Shown here piece after piece: positions 3,772-59,507 of a DNA stretch of 64,000 nucleotides. The position numbers and the translations under genes were made by a program. A model generated the notes under the pieces. The model was not told the DNA's origin, made no database searches, and saw only the letters and a list, made by a program, of their open reading frames with translations. This stretch comes from Octopus vulgaris. Lineage: Eukaryota. The stretch lies in assembly GCA_951406725.2 (NCBI GenBank), contig OX597820.1:72230001-72294000 (forward strand), read 5' to 3'. The number at the start of each line of letters is the position of its first letter. Position 1 is the first letter of the stretch.

Positions 3772-5008
3772 GAGTGGTTGGACAAAATAATGGTAACACC
3801 TTAAAATTTCAAACAAATTTATTTTAATATGGAGTAGAACCGCCTTTGGTAGTAATTACAGCTTGAATTCCACGAGGTATGGACTCGTACAAACTTTGAA
3901 TTGTTTCCAAATGGATTTTTGTCCATTCTTCAGCCAAAACAGTCTCCAGTTCTTGTAGTGATGATGGTCGAGGATATCGACTCCTTACTTGTTTTTCTGA
4001 AATGCACCATAAATGTTCAATAATATTGAGATCTGGGGACTGTGGTGGCCAGATAAGATGTTCAACTTCACTAGAATGTTCCTCATGCCATTCAGTAACA
4101 ACCTTAGCTGTGTGAATTAGTGCATTATCATCCAGAAACTGTTCTGCAACCATAGGATTAATTTAATCAGATAAAATGCTTAAATAGTCTTGACTATTAA
4201 TTCTGCCATGAGGGGAAACCATTGGGCTGGCGGATTTCCAAGATATAGCCCCCCAGATCATCATAGATCCTCCTCTATGCTTAACAGTTGGAAGAAGACA
4301 GTCTGGCTCAAATGCTTCTTTTTGTTGTCTTCACTTTCATACTCAGCTAGTAAAGAATGACTCATTCAAGAAAATAACATTTTCCCACTGCTCTAGGGAC
4401 CAATTCTGTTGGTTTTTACTCCACTCTAAATGCTTTGCAACATTTGTTTTTGAATATAGTGGTTTTCTGATTGCAGCCCTCCTGTGAAATCTGGCTTTGT
4501 GCACCTCCCAGCAAACAGTTTTTGTGGAAATTGGGTTCACGAGGTGGGCATTAAGCTCTGCAGTAATTTTGGGAGCTGTACTTTTGTGATCCTTTCTAAC
4601 AATTTGCTTAAGAGTCCGATGGTCCCTATCTGGAAGTTTTGGTTTTCTTCCGGAGTTTTGTTTTGATGAGGAGGTTTTTCCTTCTTTCTCAAAGGCTGTC
4701 ATTGCTTTTGAGACAGTACTTCTTGATACACTAAATATTTCAACTGTTTTCATTACACTAGTGCTTGCCATATGAGCACCAACAATTTGACCTCTATGAA
4801 AGTCTTAGATCTGTCATTTTAATGAATTTTAATTACCTTTTTCTGAATATATCTGAATAGAAACAGCAATTTTAGCAAATCATTTTAAGCAACACTAATA
4901 ATAAATTAAAAAAAACATAAAAATAAACAAGCTTTTGACAGTTTTATAGAGATTTCAAAATTATGATGCTATGATACCAGGTATTTCCATTATTTTGCCC
5001 AACCCTTG
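3772..5008 (-). mobile_element. Tc1/mariner-superfamily DNA transposon with disrupted transposase (ORF pieces 4343-4771 and 3824-4153)
   Basis: ~29-bp imperfect TIRs (ggttggacaaaataatggtaacacc / ggtatttccattattttgcccaacc) in TA context; GRKPKL HTH linker, WENVIFLNES, DDNA..H, WPPQSPDLNIIEHLW, GGSTPY end. Confidence 0.93.
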
Positions 5009-10050: not shown

Positions 10051-11583
10051 TGTCGTCATCATCATCATCATCATCATTTAATGTCCACTTTCCATGCTAG
10101 CATGGGTTGGACGGCTCAACTGGGGTCTGGGAAGCCAGAAGGCTGCACCAGGCCCAGTCTGATCTGGCAGTGTTTCTACAACTGGATGCCCTTCCTGACG
10201 CCAACCACTCCATGAGTGTAGTGGGTGCTTTTTACGTGCCAGACGAGGCTGGTACGATCGGATGGTACTTTTTACGTGCTACCGGCACGGAGGCCAGATG
10301 GGGCTGGCAATGGCCACAGTCGGATGGTGCTTTTTACATGTCACCGGCACAGGCCAGTCGGGGCGGCGCTGGCAAACGGCCATGTTCGGATGGTTCTCTT
10401 ACATGCCACCGGCACTGGTATCACAGCTGCAATTTCCATTGATGTTGATCGATTTCGATTTTCACTTGCCTCAACAGGTCTTCACAAGTAGTGTTTTGTG
10501 TCCCAAGAAGGAAAGGTATGCATAGGTGGACTGGCTACATCCCAGGTAGAGGCCATGGGTTATGGTCTCACTTGTCCTGCCGGGTCTTCTCACGCACAGC
10601 ATACTTCCAATGGTCTTGGTCTCTAGTCATTTCCTAGGTGAGACCTAAAGTTCGAAGGTCGTTCTTCACCACCTCGTCCCAGCCTTTCCTGGGTCTACCT
10701 CTTCCACAGGTTCCCTCAACTGCTAGGGTGTGGCACATTTTCACACAACTATCTTCATCCATTCTCGCCACATGACCATACAAGCACAAACGTCTCTCTT
10801 GCACACCACAACTGATGCTTCTTAGGTCCAACATTTCTCTCAAGTATGAACTCTGTCAAGTATGAACACTGACATTACACATCCATCGGAGCATACTGGC
10901 TTCATTTCTTGCAAGCTTACGCATATCCTCAGCAGTCATGACCCATGTTTCACTGCCATGTGGCATGGCTGTTCGTACACATGCATCATACAGTCTGCCT
11001 TTTACTCTGAGCGAGAGGCTTTTAGTCACCAGCAGAGGTAAGAGCTCTCTGAACTTTGCCCAGGCTATTCTTACTCTAGCAGTTACACTTTCAGCACACC
11101 TGCCCCCGCTACTGACTTGGTCACCTAGGTAACGGAAGCTATCAACTATTTCTAGTTTTTTACCCTAGAATGTGGCAGAAGTTGGTCTCTGCGCATTTTC
11201 AGTGTTTATTGCTCCTGAGCATCTGCCACATACAAAAACTATCTTTCTAGTTAGCCTTCCTTTGACATTGCTGCACCTCTTATGTGTCCATAGCTTACAC
11301 TTGGTGCATCTTATAGAGTTTCTACCTATGCCTTTTCTACAGATCGAGCAGGGCCATCTACCTGAAGGCGTTTGTGATTTGTCTACCTTCCTACTTATTA
11401 GGATTTTGATTTTAGCTAGGTTGACTCTAAGGCCCTTCGATTCTAATCCTTGCTTCCACACCTGAAACTTCTCCTCCAGTTCTGATAGTGACTCAGCAAT
11501 TAGAGCAAGGTCATCAGCATAGAGGAGCTCCCAGGGGCATCCTGTCTTGAATTCCTCCGTTATTGCCTGGAGGACTATGATAA
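10051..11583 (-). mobile_element. 5'-truncated RTE LINE (type A) with RT motifs 5-7 and an embedded PHD-type finger
   Basis: LLYADDL (YADD 11521-11510), GLRVNLAK, CSIC..CTKC.WTHKRC..CGRC, stop at 11167-11165, LEIVDSFRYLG, C-terminal RGRP motif and (GAT)n tail. Confidence 0.93.
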
Positions 11584-11636
11584 ATATATATATATATGGT
11601 TTCTCTATTAGATTATGAGACTGACATGCTGCCTAA

Positions 11637-29512: not shown

Positions 29513-32500
29513 TTAATAGTGGAGCCAGTGAAAAATTGTATTTTTTCGTCCCTATTTTCCTTGTATTGGATTTATTTTAATATATGAACCGAAATCGTAG
29601 TCATGCCTGATGTCAGTGCCACCTGACTGGCACATAAGCACCATTCAAGTGTGGTTCCAACCCATGCCGGCATGGAAAGCGGACGTTAAATAATGATGAT
29701 GGATCATGGATAATCTCCACTATTTTATAATAAGAATTTAACAAAATATATTAACTACAAATTTAAGGAAATATGTTTTTGTTACATTTCTGTTTTGTTT
29801 CAATTTTAAAATAATTTAGTCATTACTATGCCATTTGAAACAAATTAAGATGAACTTTGATGGAGTTTTAACATAGCAGTTCACTTTTAAAAAAGTTTGC
29901 ATCACAGGTGTGGGAGTGGCTGAGGGGTAAATAGCTTGCTTACAAACCACATGGTTCTGGGTTCATTCTACTATAGCCTCGGGCCGACCAAAGCTGTGAG
30001 TGGATTTGGCAGCCAGAAACTGAAAGAAGCTCGTCATATATATGCATGTGTGTATATATGTTTGTGTATCTGCGTTTGTCCCCCAACATCAAGTGACAAC
30101 TGACGCTGGTCTGTTTACATCCCCCATAACCTAGTGGTTCGGCAAAAGGATCCAATAGAATAAGTACGAGGCTTACAAAGAATAAGTCCTGGGGTTGATG
30201 TGCTAACTAAAGGCGGTGCTCCAGCATGGCTATAATCAAATGACTGAAACAAGTAAAAGAATAGGTGGTAAGGTGAATTCTCATGTGTGTTATATATATA
30301 TATATATATATATATACATCCATAATCTTTTATCTTTCATTTGTTTCAGTCATTAGACTGCGGCCATGCTGGGGCACCACCTTGAAGAATTTTTAGGTGA
30401 ACGAATTAACCCCCACTTTTTTATATTTTTTTAAGCCTGGTACTTGATCTATCAACATCTTTTGCCCAACCGATATATATCATATTGTGCCAGTTTGGAG
30501 AATGGTTGTTAAAAGGACTATAGAATAAGGAATGGTTAAGAAAATAAATTTTTTTTTTTTTTAGCTTGTTCCAGTCATTGGACTGTGGCCATGCTGGGGC
30601 ACCACCTTTTGGTTCTGTAACACAATGCTGTTTTTTTTTTTTAGAAAAAACAAAAGATTATTTAAATTTAGAGCTTTCCATTGTGATTTTCTACTGAAAT
30701 GTTTTTATTAAATGGGTGTGTTTTTGGTATTTTCAAGCATTAACTAATATGTAATGTCCATAGACACACGGTCATAAAAGGGTTAATTTAAAATGCTAAG
30801 GTGGTTTGAAAGCCAGGCAGTATAAGAATGTCTGTATAATTTCAGTCACACTCTAAGAAGCAGCTTAACAGATTAATTATTCTTTAATCAAGAAGTATGT
30901 TTAATACGATTATGAAACTATCATTCAAACATCACAAGATGTCAGTTAATCTATATTTACTCACTAATCTGATATAATAAATCAATGTGGCAAGTTAATT
31001 GAGAAAAATATTGATAATTGGTGGCAACATTTTTTTTTTGAAGAAACAGCTTTGTTAATTGTTTTCATGTGAAATTCATACTGAATGCAATTTTAAAAAG
31101 AAAAAATGTAGGAATGGTGTGATAAATTTGCTTTACAACCACATGGTTCCAGGTTCAGTCCCACAGTGTGGAACCTTGGACAAGCGTCTTCTACTGTAGC
31201 CCCAGGTCAACTTAATCCTTGAGTGGATTTGGTAGCTGGAAGCTAAAAGAGGCCCGGTTATATGTGTCTTAGTATTTGTCACTCATCACTGCTTCTCAAC
31301 TGGTGAGAGTTTGTTTACATCTCCATAACTTAGCAGTTCAGCAAAAGAAACTGATAGAATAAGCACCAGGCTTAGAAAAAAAAGTACTGGGGTTGATTCT
31401 TTTGACTAAAGCTCAAGGCAGTGCCCCAGCATGGCCAGTCCACTGACCGAAACAAGATAAAAAGATGTACATTTTACATCTTAATCATTCACTAATCCAT
31501 AGTTGTTTTAACCATTTTCCAAACTGGCACATGACGGATATATACATATATACACACACATGTGCAAAGGCAGATATATATTATCACTTGTCTTGATCCT
31601 GTCATTCGAGGCTTAATATCCAGATATCTGACTTCCCATCAGTGCATCAAGCCAGTCAGCATTCATTTGTATCATAAGCTTATTTTAAGTTGAAATGAAA
31701 GAAACTGGGGAATTCTCTTTAACTGTTAACCTTCCTGTCCCTAATGCTTTGGCCTATCTCAGTTTTACTTGTCAAACATTTTATAGCTAAATACATGGTA
31801 ATGACAACGAACTGGAATAAATACTTTACAGCCTAACCCTCCCACCAGCCTTCCCATAACCAAGAATGCCATCATCTTGGATTCTATGGTGAATTCTTAA
31901 ACATTTCTATTCCACATTGGTAAGTACATAAAAAAAAAAAATAAATAAAACCATTTTATATTTAATATATATTTCTGTAGTGAAGTATCACTGGTCGATA
32001 TTAATGCTGAAATATGTAGAGATGGTTAATTTGTGACAACCAGACAAAAATCAATTCCATACACTACAATGCACACAATAGTATCTGTAGCCGAGAACAA
32101 AAAATATCTAGAAGTAGGATTTATATCTCAGTTCACACATTCACTTTGGTAGCTTGTTCTTAAACCTATCTAATACCACCACCCTGGTCCCGAGATACAA
32201 AAAATACAAAACTGCTCCTTTTAAACCTTTCATAAACAGGTGGAGATATGGCTGTGCTACCACAAAGTTTTCCTGTGCAACCATGTGGTCTCAGGTTCAA
32301 TCCCACAGCATGGCACCTCAGGCCTGTCTTCTACTATACTACAGGCTCAGAACAGTTTTGAGAGTGGAAATCGAAACTGTATGGAAGCTCATTATATATC
32401 TTTCTCATATTTCAGTCATTCAACTTAAGAGACCCATGTACTTTTCTTTTTGCAAAGCCTGGTAATAATCTTTTTTGCCAAACAAGTTACAGGGACATAA

Positions 32501-34569
32501 ACACACCAACACCAGTTGTCAAGCGGTGTGGGAGGGAGGACAGCACAAATATATATATGTCTCTAAATTAATGTTACCATTATTCAATGGTTTAATATGT
32601 AATGTTAAAACTCCATCAAAGTTCATGTTAATTTGTTTCAAACGGCATAATAATAACTAAATTATTTTAAAATTGAAACAAAACATATTTCCTTAAATTT
32701 ACATAAATTTCCTCTATTTACATTAATATTGAGATCCCTTTCTTTTGTTATCTTACTGTTTTTACCAATATATATATATATACACACACACACAAATGTA
32801 TTTATTATACATATTACAGGCTTTTTTCAGTTTGTCAGCCTGGGGCTATAGTAGAAAGACACCTGCCCAAGGTGTCACACAATGGAACTGATCTGGGAAC
32901 CAACCATGTGGTTGGGAACTTCTTGCCAGTCATATCTTTATGAATATTTAGCAGAAACAACATATCAAACTATATGTATATACTTACACACATATACAGG
33001 TGTGAATAAGGGTCATGCAAGTCTTCATTAACACTAGTGATATAGTATATTTTTTCGAGTAAACTAATATTCCATGGTTCAGTGGATGTGTGAGGGACTG
33101 AGGAATGGAAAATACAGCAAACTATTTTCTATTCTGGGAGTTAGCAAAAAGAAGATCATCCAGTCATAGAAAACCTGCCATGCTAACAGAGAATCCAACA
33201 TAAAAAGCAACAATGAACCTTTCGTTAAGCTAAATACGATGAAAATAATTGGTATTTTAACCATTCAGCATTTAAATCACCCATATCCAGCCAAAACAGT
33301 TTGTTTTATGTTCAAAGCAGCCACATCTAGCCCCCACATACACCTACCCTACAATGACATCCAAATAATAAACAATCATCTTATCAGAATCTTGAAGCTA
33401 TGTGATAATGCATGATTAATTCAGAATCTTGAAGCTATGTGATAATGCATGATTAATTAAAAACAATGAATAAATAGGCATTAGATTTGACCGAGTAAAC
33501 TGAACGCTAAAAAGATTTCTGAAAATCTAACTGCCAGTGTTGATATTTCAGTTTCTTATGAAATACAGTTAAACCCTTTAGCAGCCACATCTGGCCAAAA
33601 TATCCTGTTTTATGCTCAAACTGATCAAATCAGGCTTCTCAGAGCTATAAGATAATGCATGATTAATTCAAAACAAGCAATCTGAATGCTGAAGGGTCAA
33701 ATTAGCTCGTTATTATATATCAAGTTTAACATTCATTCAACAATGTGTAGAGAGTAATTGTCATATTGAGGATATAATGTATCAATTGGAAAATTTTATT
33801 CATCACAATCAAAGATAAATGCAGTAAATTAATTATTAACCATGGCTTCGTCAGGCCCAGTCTGCCAGATCTGACTGGTCCTGACGAAGCCTTCCAGCTT
33901 CACAGACCCCAGTTGACCCGTCCAACCCATGCTAGCATGGAAAGCGGACGCTAAATGATGATGATGATGATGATGATAGCACACATGGTCCTTTCAAGGA
34001 CCAGAAGAATAAAGATATCTCAAAAAATACAGGTGTTGCAGAAATATGGATTAGTTTGTCATCAAGACCAGAGTGTCTTTCATATATTATCAAAAAATTT
34101 TTGGTAATAAAATTTGGAAAGAGGATCTTAGATTAAGTTGCTTTAAAATCAGAGATTGTTTGTCACCCAACACATATCATCCCTAGGCCAACCAAATTCT
34201 TGAATGGATTTGGTAGATGGAAACTGAAAGAAGCCCACTGAATGTATCATGTAATAGTTGTAAAGTCAATCGTACAAGAGTGTCATTTCCAGTATCCCAT
34301 AGAAATAAGGCTGGACTACGGGGAAATGTTATATTGCTGGGAAACGGGTGAAGGTTGACATTAACCCTTTAGTGTTCAGATTACTCTGTTAAATGTAATA
34401 CTTTTTTCACTCAAATTATTTTGAATTAATCACACATTATCTTGCATCATTGAAACCTCAAAGCTGTAATTGTTTACTTTTAGAATGTCAATGTAGGTTA
34501 GGTATGAGAGGCTAGATATGGCTAGTTCAAATATAAAACAAGTAGAATATGTTTGTATATAATATATTA

Positions 34570-37500
34570 ATAGATCATTTCATTCACTCATGTTACACAA
34601 CTAAAAGCAATTTACATGCAGAAAACAAAGTAAATATTTAATATAAATAAATTTCAGGACATTTTACTATACCTGCAATTTGAAGAATATTGGTAGTACC
34701 ATCAACTGTATCCCAGAGTCTTCTGATTATGATATCCTAACAAGATTTGATTGAATTGGTAGACCAACAAAAATAGTCTTTGATTTCATTAGCATTTGTT
34801 CGTTAACTTTTTTTTTTTTCCACTGATCCTCAGGACATTTAAATTCTGAATTTTGTTATAAATGCAATCCACATACAGATAAAAAAACCACACCATAAAC
34901 CCAAAAAGATAAATGTGCTGTTTGTTTTGAAGTGAAGAAAGTCCATATTAAACACACGTAAAAATGTAATTTGTACAACTAATAACTGTGACGAATTTCA
35001 CATTTTGAAATTTTCAGTGAGAAAAAAATTCCATCATATGCGAACCATTAAGCAAATATGACAGTAAAAAAAGACACCTGTTATTAAAAGGATGCAAAGT
35101 CTGATAATTTTTCAAAATAAAATACGCAACTATATGAATTTTTTATAGAAAAATAATTTTTATTTTTTTAAAAATACTTTTAAAAATACAGTAAAAATAC
35201 AAAAAATCACAGGTTTCCCATCTTGGACGTTTTAAGATCAGGTCTCAAGTGATATCTGGAGAAAGAAAAGGGGGAGAAAAATACATTAGTTATGGAAGAA
35301 TAGAAATTTAAATTAATGATGTGGGGGGAAAAAAAGACCAGACCTGTCCATTCTGTGTATGTTACATAAAAAAAAGGAAAGGAAAATAAAAGAACTTGAC
35401 CAAGTGATAGAAACCGGAGAAAGGTGAACGAAAATTTTCAGTTGTGAAAAGAGAAAAACAGGTCAAAGAAATAGAAAGAGTGAGATTCAATAGAGAGAGA
35501 GAGAGAAACAGACAGAAAGAGAAAAAGGAAGAGAGTGAAATGCAGACATGAAAGAATTTGGTAGAAAAGTCAGTTTACAAATACAGAAATACAACAATTT
35601 ATTTTTTAAAAAAAATATATATATATATATATACATAGGAAAATCTATAAAGAGACAAAATGAAAAAAAATAGACAAACATGACAGCTGCAAGATATCCA
35701 TAGACAAGAGCTAAGGACTGAGCAGCAGATTTGGAGGATGTGTAAGAAAACAAGAACAAAAAAAAAAAATAATAAAAACATAGAAGTGAAAGTTCCAAGT
35801 GGGAATCAAGGAAAAGGGTGGGTGGGCAGCTAATATCCAAACTACCGAGTCACAAGCAGTAAACCACGATAGCTGTTGGTAGTTCTTACCAACACAATGG
35901 AAAATTCTAAATTAAAAATGTCAACTTGAAAGGATTTTTCAAAAGTCAGTCAGTATCCGGTAGCACCTATTTTTTTTTTTAAGTTTTTAAGTGTTTTTTT
36001 TTCATTTAAAGAAATTTTAAAATTATTTAGCTTTTTAAAATTTTTTAAACATTTTAAAAACATTTTTTTTTAAAAAAAGTATTTTCTTTTAAATTACAAT
36101 ACAAGGTAAAAATCAGAAGACCCATTCGATATGGGTCAATGAGCTAATTATATTTTATTAGGGGCAGTTGATTTTCGTTCACCTTTCTAAAACTTGAAAA
36201 AGTTTAAAATTACAAGAAAAAGAAATTAGGAGATAATGTTTCCTAACAGAGGAGACATTATATATATATATATATATATATGCATGAGTGTGTATATATA
36301 TATATGTATGTATATATATACATATAAACATATGTATATATAAATATATATACGCACACACACATATATGTAAGTTTTAAGTTTAAGATCTTTAAAAGCT
36401 ATGAAAAGCTAAGATGAATCTCGTGTTCACTGTTAAGAGCAAATTAAAGGGACTGCAACTATTGATAATATATCAACAGTTTGCATTTTAATGTTTAATT
36501 TTTTTTTCTTTTTCCTAGTCTAAAAACTGAAAGCATCTTGGAAAACATTGAAAGCAAAAAAAAAAAAAGGAAAGGAAAAAAGGAAAAATTTAAAAAATGG
36601 AACAGTAAAAAAAGCAATTTATAATTGAAAACATCAACTGATGCCCTGATTTAGTTTAGATAATTTATCAATTTATATATATTGAACAGTTATCAATTAG
36701 GAGGGCAGATCATTTTTTTTTTAAGCCACAAATTTCTAAAGTTTATGGTTTTTAAACGGCAGTTATATAGACAATGACATGCTGTTTATTTGTGTTAACA
36801 TTCACACTGAAAAGACTACCACTTGGAATGGGAAGAAAAGATCACCACGTTACCTGGCATTACTATGGATTGGGATTCCTCGATCAAGCAGTAAAGATAC
36901 CTTAAGTGCTGATATCACATTTCCTGTGTCTTTGTTTTCCCTGGAGTCTCAGTAGCCGTCCAAATTGTAGTAGTAGTAGTAGAATTTTACTGGCAATAAA
37001 TGCCAGAAACTTGAGTACTTGTACAAAAACTTATACAATCCCTGCTGATGTACTACAAGTGTCAGAACATTAACATTTGTACATTTTTTCACTGAATTTC
37101 AATATAAACCAGGATAAGTGCTAATATCGACATATTAGCAGCTAGCCTCTATCTTTTTAGTGAGCACATACAAGCCTTAAGGATAGAAGCCTGTTACGTT
37201 TAAGACTTTTTTCTTTGTTTTGTATTGTTTTGTTTGGTTAGTTTATGTGCCTGGATTAATTAATTTATTTAGGGTTGTACAATAATATCAAAATTTGCTG
37301 CATCTTTAAAAAATTGCCTAAAGATTATTATTATTATTGTTGTTATTATTATTATATATATACATATATATTTTTTTCCTCAACCTGATAATTTGTTTAG
37401 CAGCATTTGAAATTGATTTACAACAGTTTGGATATCTAGTGGCTCTATCCTTAAGCTATTTAGAACTAGTTTGGTAGTTTTACTAAGTTTTAAAATGCAT

Positions 37501-38356
37501 TGTATGTGCCCAGTCTCCATTTAGGTCCTGGAGGAGATTTTTAGCAAGTTGAAATAAACAACGGACCAGAGTAATTTTAGACTGAATTTTATGTATTTTT
37601 TTTTTATTATTTTATTTTTAACTTTTTTAAATAATTCAAGTTACTGGGTTTTTAACCGCCACAACATTTACTAATATTGTGGCATTGCCAACTATTGATA
37701 CTCATAGTTGATTCAGTTTTACTTACATTTTTCAAAGTTGAAGAATCTAATCAGACTCATTAAGCTTTTTAGGTGTCCAGCAGAAAAAACAAAAGGCTGA
37801 CTTCTAAAACTAGTTTAAAACTTGATATTTTTTTATATGTATATATATATATGCATATATATATATATTATATATACATATATATATATATTTTTTTTTT
37901 ATTTTTAAATTTTTGACAAAGATTAAATCTACATTTGGCAGCACGGAAGCATGAGGTGACAAAACATCACTAAAATCATTTTGTACTACATGGATACTGA
38001 CAATGAGGAGAACGTGGTCGATGTAGTTTGGGTTTAAGAGTTAAAATACTTAAAAAGCCTTGTTAGGTCCTTGCCAGTTCTGTGTCACAGAGTGACAATA
38101 AAATGGATGAAAGGAGACCAAAATTCAATGAAAATGTCCCACTTATTAAGTGTTGGGGTGATATGGAAGAGTGAAATATGGTGCATGAAGTCATGATTTT
38201 TGTACCTCCTTGCTCACATGCTTGTCATTCTTCTGTGGGCCACAACTGAGATTGGCATCAGTTGGTCAAAGCCACTCGGCTTAAGTGGATGGAGACTGGA
38301 CGAAGACAGCGAATACGACCAGTGCAGCAGGGTTAGGTTTTGACCAGGGCTAGTTT
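34570..38356 (-). other. Probable long (~3-3.8 kb) 3' UTR / alternative terminal-exon region of KHDRBS
   Basis: Directly downstream of the stop; lacks the SINE/LINE copies that fill both flanks; U/A-rich with several minus-strand AATAAA (e.g. 35164-35159). End point uncertain. Confidence 0.6.
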
Positions 38357-38469
38357 TTAGTAACCTCCGCCTCTACCTCCATATGGATGACTTCTGTATT
38401 GTCCCTTTGCACCTCTAGTGGGTGGTGGGGCCTTCATCTGTCCAACATTTGAGCCCCAGCCACCATCAC
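38357..38469 (-). CDS. KHDRBS: KHDRBS exon 9 coding part ([37 protein letters not shown]), PY-NLS
   Basis: TTTTCAG acceptor; R-x-HPY NLS; TAA at 38359-38357. Confidence 0.95.
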
Positions 38470-41400
38470 CTGAAAATGAAAATAACTTGGCTAAAGACAT
38501 CACATCAAAGTAAATTAATAAAAATACACACAGGTTTTAATTAACTTAGAGAACATTATACAAACTATTTTTTATCTTCATTAGGTGGGTCAAAGACTCT
38601 AAAAACATGAAAGCTTAGCCATAGATTCCACATCTTGGTGTGCTCTACTTTTACTTTACATAGGCCTCTGATGTACTTCTAGGCATCTTATATCCATTTT
38701 GTGGTAATGCTGAGGCATCACCTTGAAGGGTTTTAGCCAAGCAAATTGCTCCCAGTACTATTTTTTTTTAAAGTTTGGTGCTTTTACCATCAATTCCTTT
38801 TGCCAAACTTAAGTTTAGGAAATGTAAACAAACTGCAGTTGCTAAGTAGTGTAGAGATCAAACACACACACATCTATAAATAGCAGGAGTCCAACATTGA
38901 TCAAAGGCATTTGCCCATGGTGCTGCACAGTGGGACTGAACCTGAAACCACGTGGCTGCAAAAGTGAGCTCCTTAACCACACAACCATGCCCGTACCTAC
39001 ACCACATATTTTGAAACCAAATCACCCATTGAGTTAAACGCGGGAGCGAATAAAAACTAATTCATTTTCAGAAAATGAGTCACTGAACATGTGGGTAACA
39101 GTTGTTACACCCAACCTGTTACATAATAACCATCAACAAATATTCAGCCTTTATATTAAATGTTAGAATCAAAACAATAAAGGGAAAATAATCTCTTTTT
39201 TAATACATATTGACAGTATATTTTACACATTGAAGACCAAAAACTAATTTTGTTTTTGTAGCTGCATATGTCTCTTTAGAATTGATTTAATTATTCAGAT
39301 ATTCAAGTTCATTCACCATAATGCAATGAACAGAGTCGGTGGGGGGAGATAGATGTTAAAAACCCAAATAATTCAGTCATTGTAAAGAAAAAATTTACAA
39401 AATTACTTGAACACTCACTCTAACAAAAGCACTTTTTTGTGCTCATTATTAAAGGAACAAAACAACTCACCGTATCCCTCATCATACTGTCCCCCAGCGC
39501 CGTAATCATAATATTGTGAGTCCCTACGAAGGAAAACAAACAATATTTTTATGCTTTTTTTTTTGTATTTCATTTTTACAATTATATATTTCATAAAAAA
39601 GCGTTTCAAACATTAACCTTTTAGCATTATTCATGTTAGTCACTTAAATGTAATGCTTATTTATTCAGATTGTTTTGAATTAATCATGCGTTATCTCATT
39701 AACTACTTCAATGATGTAATTGTTCAGTTTTAGGATGATATTGCAAGAGAGTTGTGAGGGTCAAATCTGGCCAGGCTGAACATAATACAAGTAAAACATT
39801 TTGGCTGGACATGGAAGGTTTAAATGCTAAAGTATCAAAGTGACATTTGCAGATTTCATACATTTTTTATAAATGTGTAAGCCAGTTGCAAGACCAGAAT
39901 TACTAAGACTTCCAGCAAAGGTTTTTTTTTTTAAATATCAGAAGGGGCTTGAAATGTGAGCAGCCTTGTGATTTAAGGCAAAGAAATCTATTCAAATTTT
40001 GACTCCACAGAGTGACCCCAGCTGATCCAGACCTGTAGATATATTCATATAAACATGTGCACGTATATGTAAACACAAACACAAGTATATGTTTATATAG
40101 TTATATATGTTTATATATATATATATGATACACTTACACACACATATATACTTTTTAAAAAAAAACTTATACCAGGCTCTGGAGACACAGATACATAAAT
40201 TCACCTGAGCACTATGTACCTGGAGAACTTTACTGTCCGGTCAAATATAGAAATACAACACTATCTGCCAGAAAATACTTCTGGCTTCCAGTATATTTCA
40301 GACAATAACGTCTGAGTACTTTACATACTGACCATAGAGAGAAAAAAGAAAAAGTTTATTAAGACTGGATAATGAACAAATACTGTACTGTTTTATCTAA
40401 AGACAGCTGTTTTAAAACCAAAATGTTAACTAAAATTCAAAAGGAGAAATAATTCTAGATACGAGGAACAAGAGACAACTTTAGTTGTTAACCATACCAT
40501 ATGGAATGGTATAGAATTATTACAATGGTTTTATTATGTAAACAATAAACATGACTAAGATAGTGAACACAGTAAATATTATGTGCTAACAATTACTAAA
40601 TTAGCCAACAATTGCCAAATTGAAAAACTGACACAAGAAAACTTACAAAATATTAGGATGATTATCAGATTGAAATTAATGTTCTCTTTGTTTTAATTCC
40701 ATTCGCATCTAGTACACTTTATAAGAATATAAATTAACTCCCAGCAATTAACTGAACCGAGCAGGCTTTGAACTCAGAACAGAGCCATAACTACCATGCA
40801 TTTTATCAGATGCCTTAACACTTTTGCTAATCACTACCAATTAAATGTATTTGCACAGAAAAGAAAAAATTAAAATGCTGTGGCAAATTGTACCTAAGCT
40901 AATAGCAATACACATTATGTGATGAAAGACTACAAAAGATGTGTAAAAATTAAAAAATTGACAATATACTTACACTTGGCCATATGACTGATCACCATAA
41001 CCACCTTCATAACCACTTTGATCTCCATAACCTTCATTATAACTTTGATCATATCCCTGTGGAAATTGAATAATGCTAGTTGTAGACACACATTTACATA
41101 GCTTCAGAGAGTCAATTAAAAAAAAAGCAACAATTAATTATATGGTCACAAAGAGACAGCTTATGAGGACAAAAATGAACATTAATTGGTTTTTTATAGG
41201 CCAATAATTTGTTTAATTGTACTTACTTTTGCTTCATTAAATTCAAAATTGTTTATTATCAGACCAGCAACAAACTTTTGCTGGTATCAACACTTTATAA
41301 TTAATCAGATTTACTACAAAAAGCCTGGATAATCTAATTCAGTGGAAACACAAAGCAAAAGTAAACAGTCAGTTTGAAAGGAAATCAATTGACCAGAGAT

Positions 41401-44400
41401 TATAAACTAGATCTAATCTGAAAATTATTTGGCACTGTGTAGAAAATAAACAGCAAAAAGGAAAAGTATTATAATGACATGTAACACTAACTTGAATTAG
41501 TTGCATAAGGTAATTCTAGTATCTAATCTAGTGATTTAGTGTTTAAAAATATATACTAACATAGTCATCATAGCTTTGTTCCATGGGTGGTGGCACTTGT
41601 GGAGCAGGTGCTGCCCGACCTCTGCCAGCCGCCATACCCCCTCTTGGTGGACCACCTCTTGATGGGGGTGTACCACGTCCTGCAGGAGCACCCCTCGTAG
41701 GAGGTGGAATAGCACCACCCCTGATAAAACAGAAAAAAAAAGATAAATCAGAGAATGTCTTAAGTACATAATATGTTAAAAAAATTGAAACATGTCCGAA
41801 TAAAAACTGTTTTAGTTTATAAAAGACAAATGAAAACTAAAGGGCAGAGGAGAGAAGAACCAAGAAAAACTTCATTTTACCTGCCAGCGGGACCACCTCT
41901 TCCAGCAGGAGACGTTAGAAGACCACCCCGTGGTGCCCCTCGGGGCGTCTGTCCGGGAGCACCTCTGCCACGACCTCGACCACGACCACCATCACCACCA
42001 TTTAAATACATCAATTCTTGAAGTTGCTGTTGACGGATTTCATCATTGTAATCATTCTGCAACAGCAAAAATGTAGAATATACATAAAAAATAAAACAGC
42101 ATGTGAATAACCAATAAGACAGAAATAAGTTTACAATCAATTAATAAAAAAAAAAGGGGGAGGCGGAAGCTCCACAAAAAAAAGAAAACACTCAACTCAC
42201 CGGAATTAAATACTTCTGTAATTCAGTGAAAGCATGTGCCATTCTTTGATATGCATCTGATGCTTCTGCATAAACTTCTACAAGAACATGAAGATCTTCA
42301 TTTAAGTGGGTATATTTTCCACCTTTCTTTCTTAACTCATCTTCCTATGATTAAGAGAAACAAGTAATATTAAAATATCCGTCAATAGACCATACATACA
42401 TGAGAAAGAAAAAACAAACAAAACAAAAAAACTAGCTATTACTTGAATGGCTAAATGGTAATATTGGGAGGTGGCAAATAAATTCTTTCAATTTTATTTT
42501 TATTTTTTTCTACTGGGCACCCTATCATCGTGTCTGTAAAGGGGTAAACAACATTCGTCCAAATTTTAAAAATATACAGAAGTTGTAGAGGAATAAGAGT
42601 TAAAAAGAAAAAAAAAAAACTTTAAAAGCACTATGATAAAAATATTCTTTGTATTAATTCAATTAACACTAAAAAGGGTCTAAATAGAATGAAGAAAAAA
42701 AACAAAAAACGAAGGAATTTATCTGACAACTTAATTTTGAAAACAATGAGACACTACAAATTGACAATGAAAATTCAATAATTACTAAGTATTTTTTTAA
42801 AACACACAACATATAAATCACAATAATTCCAGTTAAAAGTAATAAGGATAATTTAACCAATCTACCTACCTTATCTTTGTCTCTCATTGAACCTTTACCA
42901 AGTATAGACATTTTTGTCATTGTTTCTTCCTGTAGTCTTTTTAACGAATTACCTTTTGGTCCTAATAACTTTCCCACAAAATTGAACTGAAGAGTATATA
43001 AAATCAGAATATATTACATTGGGTTCAATTTTATATCGATGAATATCAGTTATAGATATTGTCCAGTCAAACAGAAACTGATAGGTCTAAGTACAAAGAA
43101 TTTATTAACTTCGTACACTGCCAAGAAACATGCAGTCAAAAGTTACAGAAACCGCCGTGACATCTCTCCAAACCATTGGAATTCCTAACCGAAATATTGC
43201 CAAAATTACTGACTAAACTAGTCCTAGTTTAAATGAAATGGTCATAAAAATTATGTAAGAAAAGAATTTATAATACTATTTAACAAACCAAATAAACATT
43301 CTTAACTAAAATATTTAAATTCTGTTCCAAACGATAATATTAAGTGTTGCTAACATTTATAGTTTATCTACAATGTTTTGGACAAGATCTAAGTACTTTC
43401 TACACTTGAGAGAAATTTAAGATTTCTTTTTTAATATATTGTGAAATAATCCTCTTTCTGTATAAATTTATCCAAGTATAAGAGTTTAAAATTATTTTAA
43501 AACACGATCCTTAATTCAGATATTCAATTATTTGATTATTGCTGAACAGTGGCGAGAAAACGAAAACCGATACAGAATTAAAGACGGACACACACACACA
43601 CAGATAGTAATAACAATAATAAAATGAAAGTAACAACTAAAATACCTTGGGAAATTCTTTAACAGGAATCTTGATTTTACACGAGTGTTTGTATGGTTTT
43701 CCAGTGTGTATTTCAAAACATGGTATATTTTTTTCATCTTTTTGTGAACCAGCTGGTGCATTCCCTGATTGAACTCTTTCTATTTCTAAAGAACAGATTT
43801 CTAATAATCAGGTTACAAGTGGTTATCAGAAAATTAAAGAAGAGTATGTGTTTGTGGGTTTTTTCATTTAAAAAAAAAAAAAAAAGAAAAAAAGTCAACA
43901 ATTTAAACACTAAAATCAAACATTTAAAGTTCGAAGAAATATTCATTGAAGCAAACAAAAAGTTTTCTCTATCCTGCAGGAAATACGCTAACAAAATACG
44001 AGAAAGTATTTGCAAAAGACACAAAAAAAGTGTAAAACATCATCGAAGATTTATATAAAGTTTGCAATAAAATAGCCAGTGCTTACCTGAAATGAGCAAC
44101 ATAGATTAGCTATAAGTTAAAGAGTATCCGATCAAAACACACAGCTTGCTTCAACAGACACGGAAATAGTGACTGCTTATTTATCAAGCTTCGTTTGAGA
44201 GGATGTTGATGTGTAAGTTGGCAGACAATCAATGAAGGTGTGTAAAAGTTTACGTGAGCGGTGATAGCCTTGTGTCAGCATCAAATCTTGAAAGGCAGGC
44301 GTGCGTGATAAGGAAGCTAGTCTATTAAGAGACGAGTAGTGCTTTTCCTCAAGGGTTACACACTTGCAGCCAGCAGCACTGCAAGATTACCTCTCTCCGC

Positions 44401-47400: not shown

Positions 47401-47935
47401 ATTCGTTAGAGAAAAATGTTCAAATTTGTGATTTATTTACTCAATATTGAAGACAACATGTAGGAAGGTGATAACTTAAATATAAGATGGAGACTGGGTC
47501 ACGCCGATCGGAAAAAAAACAGCATGACTGAATACAACGCTGTAGTTGTCGTGTTCTGTGATGAATAAAGTATAATATTTACACCTTAGCTTAACCACCA
47601 AGCCATTTGCTAGCCTTTCGTATTAATATCGGCTATTAGTAGTAAGATAAAGAGTATATAAGCTGCCAGAACAATCTATTTCATCTACTATCAGTTAGAA
47701 CATAAATGAAATGACAAGCAGTATACCGGTAAATATGGCCGACCTCAGTCTCATACAAGCAATATGGACCATTATAACAGCAACTATCACGTAAAAAAAG
47801 ATAATATTATTACATACCTTCAGTTATTAATCGAGCAGCATGAGAAGAGGGAGAAAGTGATGTAACTTCGGCTTGAAGTTCATCAAGATATGTATTGTTT
47901 TGCATCTGTTGTTGAGCGTCTTCTTCAACCATCAT
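38357..47935 (-). CDS. KHDRBS: KHDRBS (Sam68/SLM1/SLM2-like) STAR-family KH RNA-binding protein, 9 coding exons, 367 aa; join complement(47818-47935, 43646-43785, 42870-42986, 42201-42344, 41881-42056, 41561-41720, 40974-41056, 39471-39523, 38357-38469)
   Basis: Manual splicing gives an open 1104-nt frame with GT-AG introns and matching phases. Motifs: [25 protein letters not shown] (QUA1), [30 protein letters not shown] (maxi-KH, GPKG loop), [11 protein letters not shown] (QUA2), RGG/Pro-rich, Tyr-rich, and [15 protein letters not shown] matching the Sam68/SLM C-terminus. Paralog number (1/2/3) is not assignable. Confidence 0.96.
38715..39000 (-). mobile_element. Decayed tRNA-derived SINE in KHDRBS intron 8
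   Basis: gtgggactgaacctgaaaccacgtgg..ttaaccacacaaccatgcc matches the reverse of the SINE head. Confidence 0.75.
39471..39523 (-). CDS. KHDRBS: KHDRBS exon 8 ([17 protein letters not shown])
   Basis: CCTTCGTAG acceptor, G|GTGAGT donor; YYDYG motif of the Sam68/SLM Tyr-rich tail. Confidence 0.93.
40974..41056 (-). CDS. KHDRBS: KHDRBS exon 7 ([27 protein letters not shown]), Tyr-rich
   Basis: TTCCACAG acceptor, GT|GTAAGT donor, phase 2. Confidence 0.92.
41561..41720 (-). CDS. KHDRBS: KHDRBS exon 6 ([10 protein letters not shown]...[11 protein letters not shown])
   Basis: TTATCAG acceptor, TAT|GTTAGT donor; RG/Pro-rich frame continuous with exon 5. Confidence 0.92.
41881..42056 (-). CDS. KHDRBS: KHDRBS exon 5 ([20 protein letters not shown] + RG/P-rich)
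   Basis: QUA2 motif; TTGCAG acceptor, CAG|GTAAAA donor, phase 2. Confidence 0.96.
42201..42344 (-). CDS. KHDRBS: KHDRBS exon 4 ([24 protein letters not shown]...ELQKYLIP)
   Basis: [14 protein letters not shown] motif; CATAG acceptor, CCG|GTGAGT donor. Confidence 0.97.
42870..42986 (-). CDS. KHDRBS: KHDRBS exon 3 ([39 protein letters not shown]), KH core
   Basis: STAR KH signature; TTCAG acceptor, AAG|GTAGGT donor; overlaps ORF 42669..42977. Confidence 0.98.
43646..43785 (-). CDS. KHDRBS: KHDRBS exon 2 (EIERVQSG...[11 protein letters not shown])
   Basis: TTTAG acceptor, AAG|GTATTT donor, 140 nt, phase 1 to 0. Confidence 0.93.
45820..46705. repeat. ~0.9-kb compound (TA)/(CA) microsatellite in KHDRBS intron 1
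   Basis: Directly visible; sub-period CATACACA(TA)n. Confidence 0.95.
47818..47935 (-). CDS. KHDRBS: KHDRBS exon 1 ([39 protein letters not shown]), QUA1
   Basis: ATG at 47935; donor GAAG|GTATGT, phase 1; resembles the Sam68 QUA1 helix pair. Confidence 0.9.
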
Positions 47936-55848: not shown

Positions 55849-58800
55849 TATATACACACATACATACATTTGAAAAAATTAGTAGAGATGGCTTTTTGTG
55901 GGGGATAATTTTTATTTTAATCTTAATAATAATGTTTACAGAGAGTTATCCTGATATGAGTTTTGAGCTTCAAGTAGCTGTATTCAAACTGAAAAAATGT
56001 AGGTTTTACTGGTTGCTTAAATAGTAAAAGATTTTTTTTCTTACAAGTATACATGCAAAAAAAAAAAAAAAATTATATGCAAAAAAAGTGAGGGGAATAT
56101 TTAAAAAATATATATATGTAAAATACAAAAGCATGTGTGAAATACAAGTGGAAACAGCACTGAAATATCTTTACAGATTCATTTTATTATTTTTTTTCCT
56201 TTAATTGAACAGGATAAGTATTTCATATTCATTACATTAAATGACTTTTATAAAACATTACCAGCTTCAATGTGTATGTCCATCTTAGCAAATATCAAAA
56301 ACTAAAAGTCAAAAATTAGGAAATAAGAATTAAAAATTAGTAAAGATTAAAAAAAAAATTATCCTCTCACAAAAGCCATCTCTACTCGTTTTTTCAAATA
56401 TATATAATACTGTACCAAGAACTTTCTTTTTATTATTCTACTATTTTACAGATTGGTACAAGACAGGATGGCTTACACAAGATTGAAATCAGCAACTGAA
56501 TTACTGAAATCTGAAACATTATTAGAGGAAATTTCCACAAAACTTTCAATCATAAGCAAATATGAATCCCTTGCTGATACTTTCTATGAAATGGAACAAG
56601 AAACATGGATCTTCAGAGAAACACTGCATTCCCTTCTTACAGACATCATCAAAATGAAAACCAAAGCAGAACTCCAGAAACGAGTATCCACAACCTAAAT
56701 TCAACCACACAAAACATATTAAAGGAATGGAATGAACTCAACTTGGAAAAGGAGACATAAAAAAAGAAAAACCAGATGAAAAACATCTGGAACAGCAAAT
56801 TAAATAAAAGAAAACAAGCATATTGGAGAGCCCTAAAAAATGAGAACCTAGCCAACACATATGAACAGTGGAGAAGCAGAGAAGTAATGCAATGAAGAGC
56901 AAAGAAATAAAGCCAGAACCAAATGAAGAAACAAAGATTTGGCTCAGTTTAGCACTACAGAGATTTGAAGCTGAAATAACACTATTTTGCCTTAGAGTAA
57001 CAAACATCCAAAAGATATTTGAAAAATGTGACACTTATATACATGAAGAAATTAACTAAAAAAGCAGTGGAAGTATCCAAAAAAAACAAAACTTCTAGAC
57101 ATGGGGAAAACTGACACCATCAGAGAGGAGACTAAGTCTAAGAAGATCTTGGAATCAATGAAAACTCTTCTGGCTACAAGAATACAAAAACACCTATGGG
57201 AAAAACCAAATAAAAACTAAACACCGACCTACTACAACAACCCTCAGACCTCAAAATGACACCAAAAGAAAGGAAGTTTTCCCACAAAATAGACAAAGAT
57301 ATCTCAGTCCTCTAAGAATCGCAAATTTGTGATTATGTGTGGATATAATAAGAAACAAGAGAACATACAATCCCAGCCAAAGAACAAATAGAACTCTCAA
57401 GTGACCAAATCATAGACGCAAACGAACCATATGGAACAACAATAGAATATTGAGTCAACCCCCAATCCAGCAACCAAGAGTGTACTCACCCATGACTAAC
57501 CAACCTAAAATATTTTCATACAGAAAAATACAAAATTCCCACATAAACACTCCCAATTCCAATGGAAATCATTTTTTAAGACAGGAAACCTACCGCTAAA
57601 AAAAGAAAAAAATAGCACCATTCTTCTCAAGACATCAGAAAACAAACTCATAAGCAAACTGAAAACACAAAATTTAGCCACAAAGAAATTATCCAAAGAA
57701 GAAATTAAACTTCTGGAAAATGGTTTGAAATTTACACCAACCAGGCTGAATTCATAAAAGACACAGAAGAATTTTGCCAAAAATTACAATTGATAGAATT
57801 TTTTCTAAATACTAGAGACACAGACAAATCACTGGTTAAAAATAGAACAGGATTCAGACATCCCTTAAATAGAGACAAAAATTTAGAAGAATATATTAGC
57901 TACCTACAGCGATCAGCTCAATCCAGAGGAAGGGTAAATCCAACATATCTAAATATCAATTGGAAGCATTAAAAAGTTTACAAAAAGACTCTTCGATAAT
58001 TTTCAAAGTTGACAAAGGTGGAGCAATAGTTATCATGGACAAGAACCATTACAGAGATATAGTGATGGAACAACTCAATGACCATCACTTCTACAAGAAG
58101 CTAAACCAAAACGTGGATAAAAATTCCATGTGTAAGATACATAGACTCATCTCAAAATATCATAATAACCTAACTGCAAATGAAGTTAATTATTTAACTA
58201 ACTTCGAAGTAAAAACCAATAACTTCTATGGTTTACCAAAGATCCACAAATAAAAAGAAATCTAAGACAATATAAAAAGAGACAATCCAACATATATCGA
58301 AATTCTGAAACCCAGAGATCTGAAATTAAACCCAATCATTGTAGGACCAGCATCCAGTACACAACATTTATGCAACTTAATAGATATAATTCTAAAACTG
58401 TTATGCAAAATGAAACCAAGCTTTGTCAGGGATATGGACTTTTTAAACCTCATGTTTTCATGGTTGATTTGTCTCCATAATTCTTTTCATAGGGTGTAAA
58501 CCATTCTTGATGCTTCTCCCACATTTTTCTGGATCTTGCTTCTTCTGTCTGTATCTCTCTTCCATAGGTTTCTCAATTTCTCGTGGCATTGTTTATCACT
58601 TCGCTCTGTAGAGTATCTACAGACATTTATTACAAAAAACAGACACACATCACTATCTCAACTTTGACTCTTGCCACCCATCACACATTAAAAGAAATAT
58701 ACCCTACTGCATGGCAAGACACATAAGCACTATAGTTACAGACACTGCAACACGAAAAACTAGACTTGACGAACTCTAGGACTTCCTCGAAATACAAAAA

Positions 58801-58959
58801 TACCCTTCAGGTTTGATAAAGGAAGGTTTTAAAAGGTATTGAAACTCAACATCACCGAATTAAGAACACCAAAAGAAAAAAACCAATAAACAGACAATAC
58901 CATTCGTCTCCACACACAGTCCTGGCATAACAAATATTTTCCAGGGTATAAAATCAGAC

Positions 58960-59507
58960 TTGCCCATCCTTTTACAAAGACCTAAAATGAGGAACCTGAT
59001 GAACAAAAAAATCCTACTCAACAGCAAATGCCAACCGAAAAACCTTAAAAAGCACCTTACAAGGGCAGAATTCAGATTGGAGAAGGGACCAGAATTCTCT
59101 GTAACAGAATGTGGAGACAAAAGATGCGGAACATGCAACAACGAGAATAATTACAAATACCTACAATGTGGTTCCCACTTAAAATTTTTAAATGGCTCTC
59201 TCTTTAAGATCAATGCTAATATGACTTGCAAAACACAAAACCTCATATATTGCATTACTTGCCCAAACTGCAAGGAAAACTATATTGGCGAAACGAACAA
59301 CTCTCTCTGCCAACGTGCCAGGATACATAGGCAGCATATAAAACAGGAAGAGTTACGCAAGATACCATTAAGCAAACACCTAGAAGTATGCGGGAATGGA
59401 AAATTTAAAATCATTCCATTCTACAAATGCTCATGGAATGACCTGGAATACCGTTAAGCTATGGAACTGCACTTCATAGAAAAATTTAGCCCAAAATTGA
59501 ACAGCTA
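58960..59507 (+). pseudogene. GIY-YIG endonuclease domain of the Penelope-like element, with premature stop at 59455-57
   Basis: LIY...YIGET motif, upstream Cys cluster, and ELHFIEKFSPKLNS continuing after the stop. Confidence 0.9.

Follow-up and report, generated by a model that had tools for sequence, protein, structure and literature searches.

Within the KHDRBS family, the closest described systems are those of mouse Slm2 and human Sam68, in which a donor within terminal exon 9 is spliced to non-coding exons, as set out in the available portions of two reports (PMC5199341, PMC11077083). According to these portions, the protein induces the spliced form and cycloheximide stabilises it, as does loss of UPF1 in the case of Sam68 (PMC5199341, PMC11077083). 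According to the accessible part of Ehrmann et al., this feedback predates the split between Sam68 and SLM2 (PMC5199341), while SLM1 (KHDRBS2) is, in work mentioned in the available excerpts, cross-regulated by SLM2 via nonsense-mediated decay (NMD) (cited in PMC5199341, PMC11077083). One khdrbs gene is given for the invertebrates analysed, the fly excepted, in the available portion of a further report (PMC5758493). Among the papers found, as far as their available text goes, none links KHDRBS, octopus and splicing, and none deals with a feedback intron in an invertebrate KHDRBS gene. Autoregulation of splicing factors through unproductive splicing is a well-known kind of control, and the surprise of a further candidate is therefore moderate. 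In other STAR genes alternative last exons reportedly change the protein, as in QKI-5 versus QKI-6/7 and in Drosophila How-L/S.

The window, that is, the whole stretch of 64,000 nucleotides of Octopus vulgaris DNA analysed here, contains on its minus strand a KHDRBS gene of nine coding exons, which runs from the ATG at 47935 to the stop codon TAA at 38359-38357 and gives an open join of 367 aa. Coding exon 1 (47818-47935) was located by tblastn with the Sepia model P0002 (82%) and by the open join. Coding exons 2-7 (40974-43785), encoding the KH domain, the RG/P-rich part and the Y-rich part, were placed based on GT-AG borders, a single open frame, a KH match in Pfam and tblastn; individually they occupy 43785-43646, 42986-42870, 42344-42201, 42056-41881, 41720-41561 and 41056-40974. 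Exon 8 (39471-39523), defined by the exon joins, leaves in phase 1, and the coding part of terminal exon 9 (38357-38469) carries RSHPY and the stop, a tail also present in P0001 and P0003.

Exon 3 matches PF22675 and KH_1 of Pfam, and P0003, which is near-identical to the window protein, gave a KH match together with a Qua1 match under the Pfam cut-off (25.4 vs 29.3 bits). In tblastn, seven exon-sized pieces were 82-96% identical to a Sepia protein named KHDRBS3. The nearest named relatives are KHDRBS proteins, and the C-terminus has the RSHPY PY motif and a Y-rich tail. Judged from its sequence (the STAR-type KH domain, the KHDRBS relatives and the PY tail), the gene is a member of the KHDRBS (Sam68/SLM) group. 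A genome search with exon 4 returned one match; by this search, KHDRBS is single-copy in this genome. A possible alternative first exon was noted in intron 1 (44102-44081, minus strand), where a strong donor in phase 1, like that of exon 1, comes 16 nt after an ATG. The Logan proteins P0005 and P0007 start just ahead of exon 2, without most of Qua1.

Downstream of the stop codon, a long AT-rich 3'UTR of about 3.2 kb is predicted (35140-38356, minus strand, the 3' end included in the prediction), of which RNA-like contigs cover 35228-35950. It contains eight AATAAA signals, at 37903, 37616, 37608, 37269, 36790, 36159, 35603 and, as the last one, 35164. On the KHDRBS sense strand, 3.1 kb downstream of the stop codon, the branch-point consensus ACTAAT was read at 35290-35285 (branch A at 35286, 31 nt ahead of the exon), followed by 24 pyrimidines without interruption (35281-35258) and AG (35257-35256), so that tract and AG together span 35256-35281 and the first base of the exon is 35255. 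The branch point, pyrimidine tract and YAG of a U2-type 3' splice site are thus all present with normal spacing, and with AATAAA at 35164-35159 a candidate short non-coding terminal exon of 97 nt (35159-35255, minus strand) was computed. An acceptor made up of ACTAAT, a long pyrimidine tract, CAG and the AATAAA at 35164-59 had been proposed in the initial annotation and was confirmed from the minus-strand sequence; its coordinates were right, and its tract had been written with one T too many.

A candidate internal 5' splice site (36848-36856, minus strand) was identified by donor scoring, with its last exon base at 36854, 1,503 nt past the stop. It has the top score (5.3) among the 154 GT sites from 38420 to 35300, on a scale that rests on human base frequencies. 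A donor as strong appears in 37% of shuffles, and its strength alone is unremarkable; it is also the only one of the 154 GT sites to have four bases (CCAG) in common with the acceptor flank. The AATAAA at 36790-36785 (minus strand) lies 64 nt past this candidate donor and might serve as a proximal end, in competition with a UTR intron.

Based on donor scoring and on the contig ends described below, a candidate 3'UTR intron was delimited at 35256-36853 (minus strand). In the reading that we prefer, and for which we see about equal chances of being right or wrong, 35255 is a genuine 3' splice site, though a minor one, and closes this 1,598-nt intron from 36854, with the 367-aa protein unchanged; we infer the join from where the contigs break. 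Most transcripts would retain the long UTR, the unspliced form being the productive one, and a fraction would splice 36854 to 35255, which would take out the 1,598 nt and leave a junction 1,503 nt past the stop and a 97-nt exon up to AATAAA. By analogy with the vertebrate genes, the spliced mRNA might go to NMD, lowering the mRNA level, and the KHDRBS protein itself might promote the splicing and so close a negative feedback loop. The initial annotation had presented the acceptor as belonging to either an isoform without the nuclear localisation signal (NLS) or an NMD switch. The switch fits best, as a candidate with decay by analogy, having the vertebrate precedent of a donor within terminal exon 9 and an X1 contig end at 35230 that matches a join from 36854, one of the donors it had named. 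The isoform was unsupported.

The layout resembles "alternative end 2" of SLM2 (KHDRBS3) and Sam68 (KHDRBS1). Here too the ninth and terminal coding exon contains the stop; the candidate donor lies after the stop within this exon, with AATAAA soon after it (36790), the downstream acceptor would open a non-coding exon, and the protein would stay unchanged. Unlike mouse Slm2, in which exons 10 and 11 lie beyond the annotated terminal exon, the octopus candidate intron is covered unspliced in RNA-like contigs, and the prediction includes just one short exon. In vertebrates, splicing, NMD and autoregulation have been demonstrated, whereas the octopus likeness is one of sequence layout. In vertebrate SLM2 fewer UWAA motifs precede the donor, whereas the 3 found in the 300 nt upstream of 36854, against 14 downstream, are explained by composition (z -1.1 vs shuffles; values as low occur in 8% of UTR windows). 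UWAA density likewise equals the composition expectation in the UTR (z 0.24) and in the candidate intron (z 0.13), and UWAA enrichment was dropped as a line of evidence.

As with SLM1, the level of a KHDRBS transcript may be controlled here through splicing of its 3' end. Unlike in SLM1, where cross-regulation needs paralogues, the single exon 4 match means that any octopus loop would be self-regulation. We regard it as rather unlikely that a vertebrate-like self-limiting KHDRBS loop (an intron in the 3'UTR of exon 9, with NMD) dates to the bilaterian ancestor and works in octopus; that the same layout was kept despite lost sequence similarity is part of this idea and is held just as tentatively. 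If octopus has a matching intron, either the feedback is as old as the protostome-deuterostome ancestor or it arose convergently in a large-brained invertebrate. Many lineages lack EJC-type NMD or have not had it characterised, according to the available part of one source (PMC6173133). If it is absent here, splicing would cut the UTR to half its length and might make the mRNA more stable; if the preferred reading is true, the intron would be a natural reporter on whether molluscan NMD reads downstream junctions.

The strict acceptor motif occurs once in the 128 kb of the window's two strands. A looser form (CTRAY, at least 18 of 20 pyrimidines, YAG) has two sites in the window, the second being the true acceptor of exon 6 at 41720. 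In 1000 dinucleotide shuffles, with four ACTAAY/CTRAY definitions that were post hoc and fitted once the site was known, the motif appeared in 0-0.8% of shuffles of the 3.2-kb UTR and in 0-2.9% of those of the distal 760 nt; with the loosest definition (YTNAY), equally post hoc, these figures rose to 5% and 19%. Genome-wide, the strict pattern gave 30 matches in 2.8 Gb, or about 1 per 190 Mb of strand. The reversed pattern gave 12, a scrambled branch point 35 and CAA in place of CAG 54. The motif is rare, yet genome-wide it is not enriched over background and, since its count is not above the latter two controls, it is by itself no mark of function. A retrocopy of the terminal exon was rejected, a genome search having returned one match, the site itself. 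Rfam gave no matches within 34500-38500, and no match to 34000-39600 was found among 28 metagenome loci scanned.

These counts bear on whether the site is an unused look-alike, in which the pyrimidine-rich distal 3'UTR carries ACTAAT and CAG by chance and transcripts read through to the AATAAA at 35164. We consider this the main rival, possible but on the unlikely side. The genome-wide background agrees with it, as does the local composition: the 200 nt from 35557 downward are 79% pyrimidine, and a CT-rich stretch adjoins the site. Moreover, when 20 of the 29 other genome-wide matches were inspected, about 4 led into an open frame of at least 25 codons that reaches a donor scoring at least 2. 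Those four (L030, L036, L039 and L042), each with an open coding-like exon after the motif, are probably true acceptors. Against a chance origin stand the local shuffles, which seldom yield the motif, and the precedent for such an intron in the KHDRBS family.

A second way to do without splicing would be to take ACUAAU, in the mature 3'UTR, as a site bound by a STAR protein of the QKI/How type, while other proteins occupy the U-rich tract. ACUAAY is the QKI/SF1 motif, and ACTAAY is present twice in the UTR (37242 and 35290), its copy at 35290 lying within the cover of RNA-like contigs. Finding the hexamer twice is unremarkable for an AT-rich UTR of 3.2 kb, however, and binding would leave both the spacing to tract and AG and the contig ends unexplained; we rate it very improbable.

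The region is contained in 20 sequencing runs, none of which is recorded as RNA and 14 of which were guessed to be RNA. Four of these 20 (X1, X5, X12 and X19) were aligned to 31000-35950, a section that spans the acceptor and the donor 35890 and in which repeat-derived contigs dominate the alignments. The donors 36854 and 39471 lie outside it, so their junctions could not show as joints, and with this scope no joint at 35255 was found among the 15 listed of 533 in the section, as would also be the case for an unused site. Contig 7 of X1 (404 nt, depth 49.8) aligned to 35230-35464, with its first letter at 35230 and without a loose end, and contig 8 of the same run (depth 38) aligned to 35645-35950; judged by their lengths, these two share exactly 30 nt, which is the overlap of neighbouring contigs at a branch of the assembly graph. 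In X1, unspliced sequence of the intron side is thus found at a depth of 38-50, which again suits a look-alike. In X5, from a separate study, contig 31 (depth 13.8) begins at 35228.

Logan contigs are non-branching paths in a k=31 graph, as described in the available part of the source (PMC12424806), and a join at 35255 would therefore force the intron-side contig to stop 30 letters beyond the first base common to both forms. For any join at 35255 the predicted end is 35226-35230, and the X1 and X5 ends both fall inside this range, reaching 26 and 28 letters, respectively, past the AG, under the 31-letter bridging rule. The donor 36854 predicts 35230, exactly the end of X1 contig 7, and is the sole one among the 154 GT sites to do so; the best donor shares exactly CCAG in 2.6% of 500 shuffles. 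That contigs of two studies end in the 5-nt range, one of them at the very position predicted by the best donor, argues against an unused site, on a geometry test that was devised post hoc and, for the exact match, on a single contig. The shared downstream contig expected from a join is not visible in X1, where contig 7 alone accounts for the bin depth of 25.8. Assemblers may clip or filter short dead ends, which is a possible fate of that contig.

A plain end of coverage near the transcript 3' end is another possible cause for a contig to halt there, and the DNA-like run X19 is also without depth in the bin of the contig ends. Of 30 bins, 9 were without depth in X1, all of them below 35150; X5 and X12 lacked depth at 34984-35149. 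Loss of cover was rejected as a sign of a 3' end near 35164, X19 being also thin there (0, 0.81) and X12 being gapped upstream too. A poly(A) fork at 35230, where the contig ends on four A, is unlikely because there is no AATAAA or ATTAAA between 35603 and 35164. The shares of words found in 13 unaligned or partly aligned runs (0.37-0.51) were nearer to the value for a UTR reaching 35140 (0.41) than to that for one reaching 36770 (0.24) and were set aside because repeats inflate them.

The X5 end at 35228 suits donors ending in AAG or GAG, not 36854, and coincides with the end predicted if 35255 were used with such weaker donors, either in the UTR (36901, 36183) or within the exon 9 coding sequence (38413, 38377). 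Of the latter two, 38413 would give a protein without the PY-NLS and 38377 one that retains it. These donors score 0.8-3.4, however, against 5.3 for 36854, and at an X5 depth of just 13.8 the contig may simply end with its coverage. For 36183 there is the further objection that X1 contig 8 should by its length extend unbroken to about 36289 (its aligned part stops at 35950). We judge the use of 35255 with these donors highly unlikely. The third donor named in the initial annotation, 35890, is crossed unbroken by X1 contig 8 and was rejected for this run.

The remaining donor, that of exon 8 (39523-39471, phase 1), would give the isoform without the NLS. Exon 9 would be skipped, and a cytoplasmic KHDRBS protein of 333 aa, compared with the normal 367 aa, would lack the PY-NLS in the manner of QKI-6/7. 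The in silico join to 35255 behaves as the initial annotation had described, with three residues and a stop gained and RSHPY lost; the reading frame works and the stop falls in the last exon. The lost RSHPY fits the PY-NLS consensus R/H/K-X2-5-PY as given in the available part of the source (PMC2408616). As in QKI and How, this is a STAR gene whose C-terminal localisation signal 3' splicing could remove. Unlike in QKI and How, the octopus signs point to a UTR donor. Joins from exon 8 (39471) and from 35890 both predict a contig end at 35227, whereas the ends seen in X1 and X5 are 35230 and 35228, and for the isoform the acceptor of exon 9, a normal one lying 3.2 kb upstream, would have to be skipped.

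The protein data point the same way. In a cephalopod cluster of 10 members, 8 were counted and two unrelated fragments of 56-57 aa were left out; none of these 8, which include no octopus protein, ends at the exon 8 boundary, and the RSHPY tail terminates 7 of them. RxHPY is kept in all of the 12 best non-cephalopod matches (P0011-P0022), and the protein searches yielded no KHDRBS protein from octopus itself. We give the truncated isoform a very slight probability, lower than that of the weaker donors. The eighth cluster member, the Sepia model P0002, goes out of frame in exon 9, following PPPTR; this appears to be a frameshift in the model, and P0002 was not accepted as isoform evidence. Two frames of the proximal 3'UTR at 38333-38197 (minus strand) match the C-terminus of P0002, with 58% over 31 aa and 47% over 19 aa, which suggests conservation of about 140 nt of non-coding UTR between the octopus genome and cuttlefish.

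Elsewhere in the window, broken frames at 3824-4804 (minus strand) were taken, by their motifs, to be a Tc1/mariner-like transposase, and fragments at 10634-11632 (minus strand) presumably derive from a LINE-like reverse transcriptase. At 57500-59457 (plus strand) there is what we assume to be a Penelope-like element, with broken frames and a GIY-YIG-like end.
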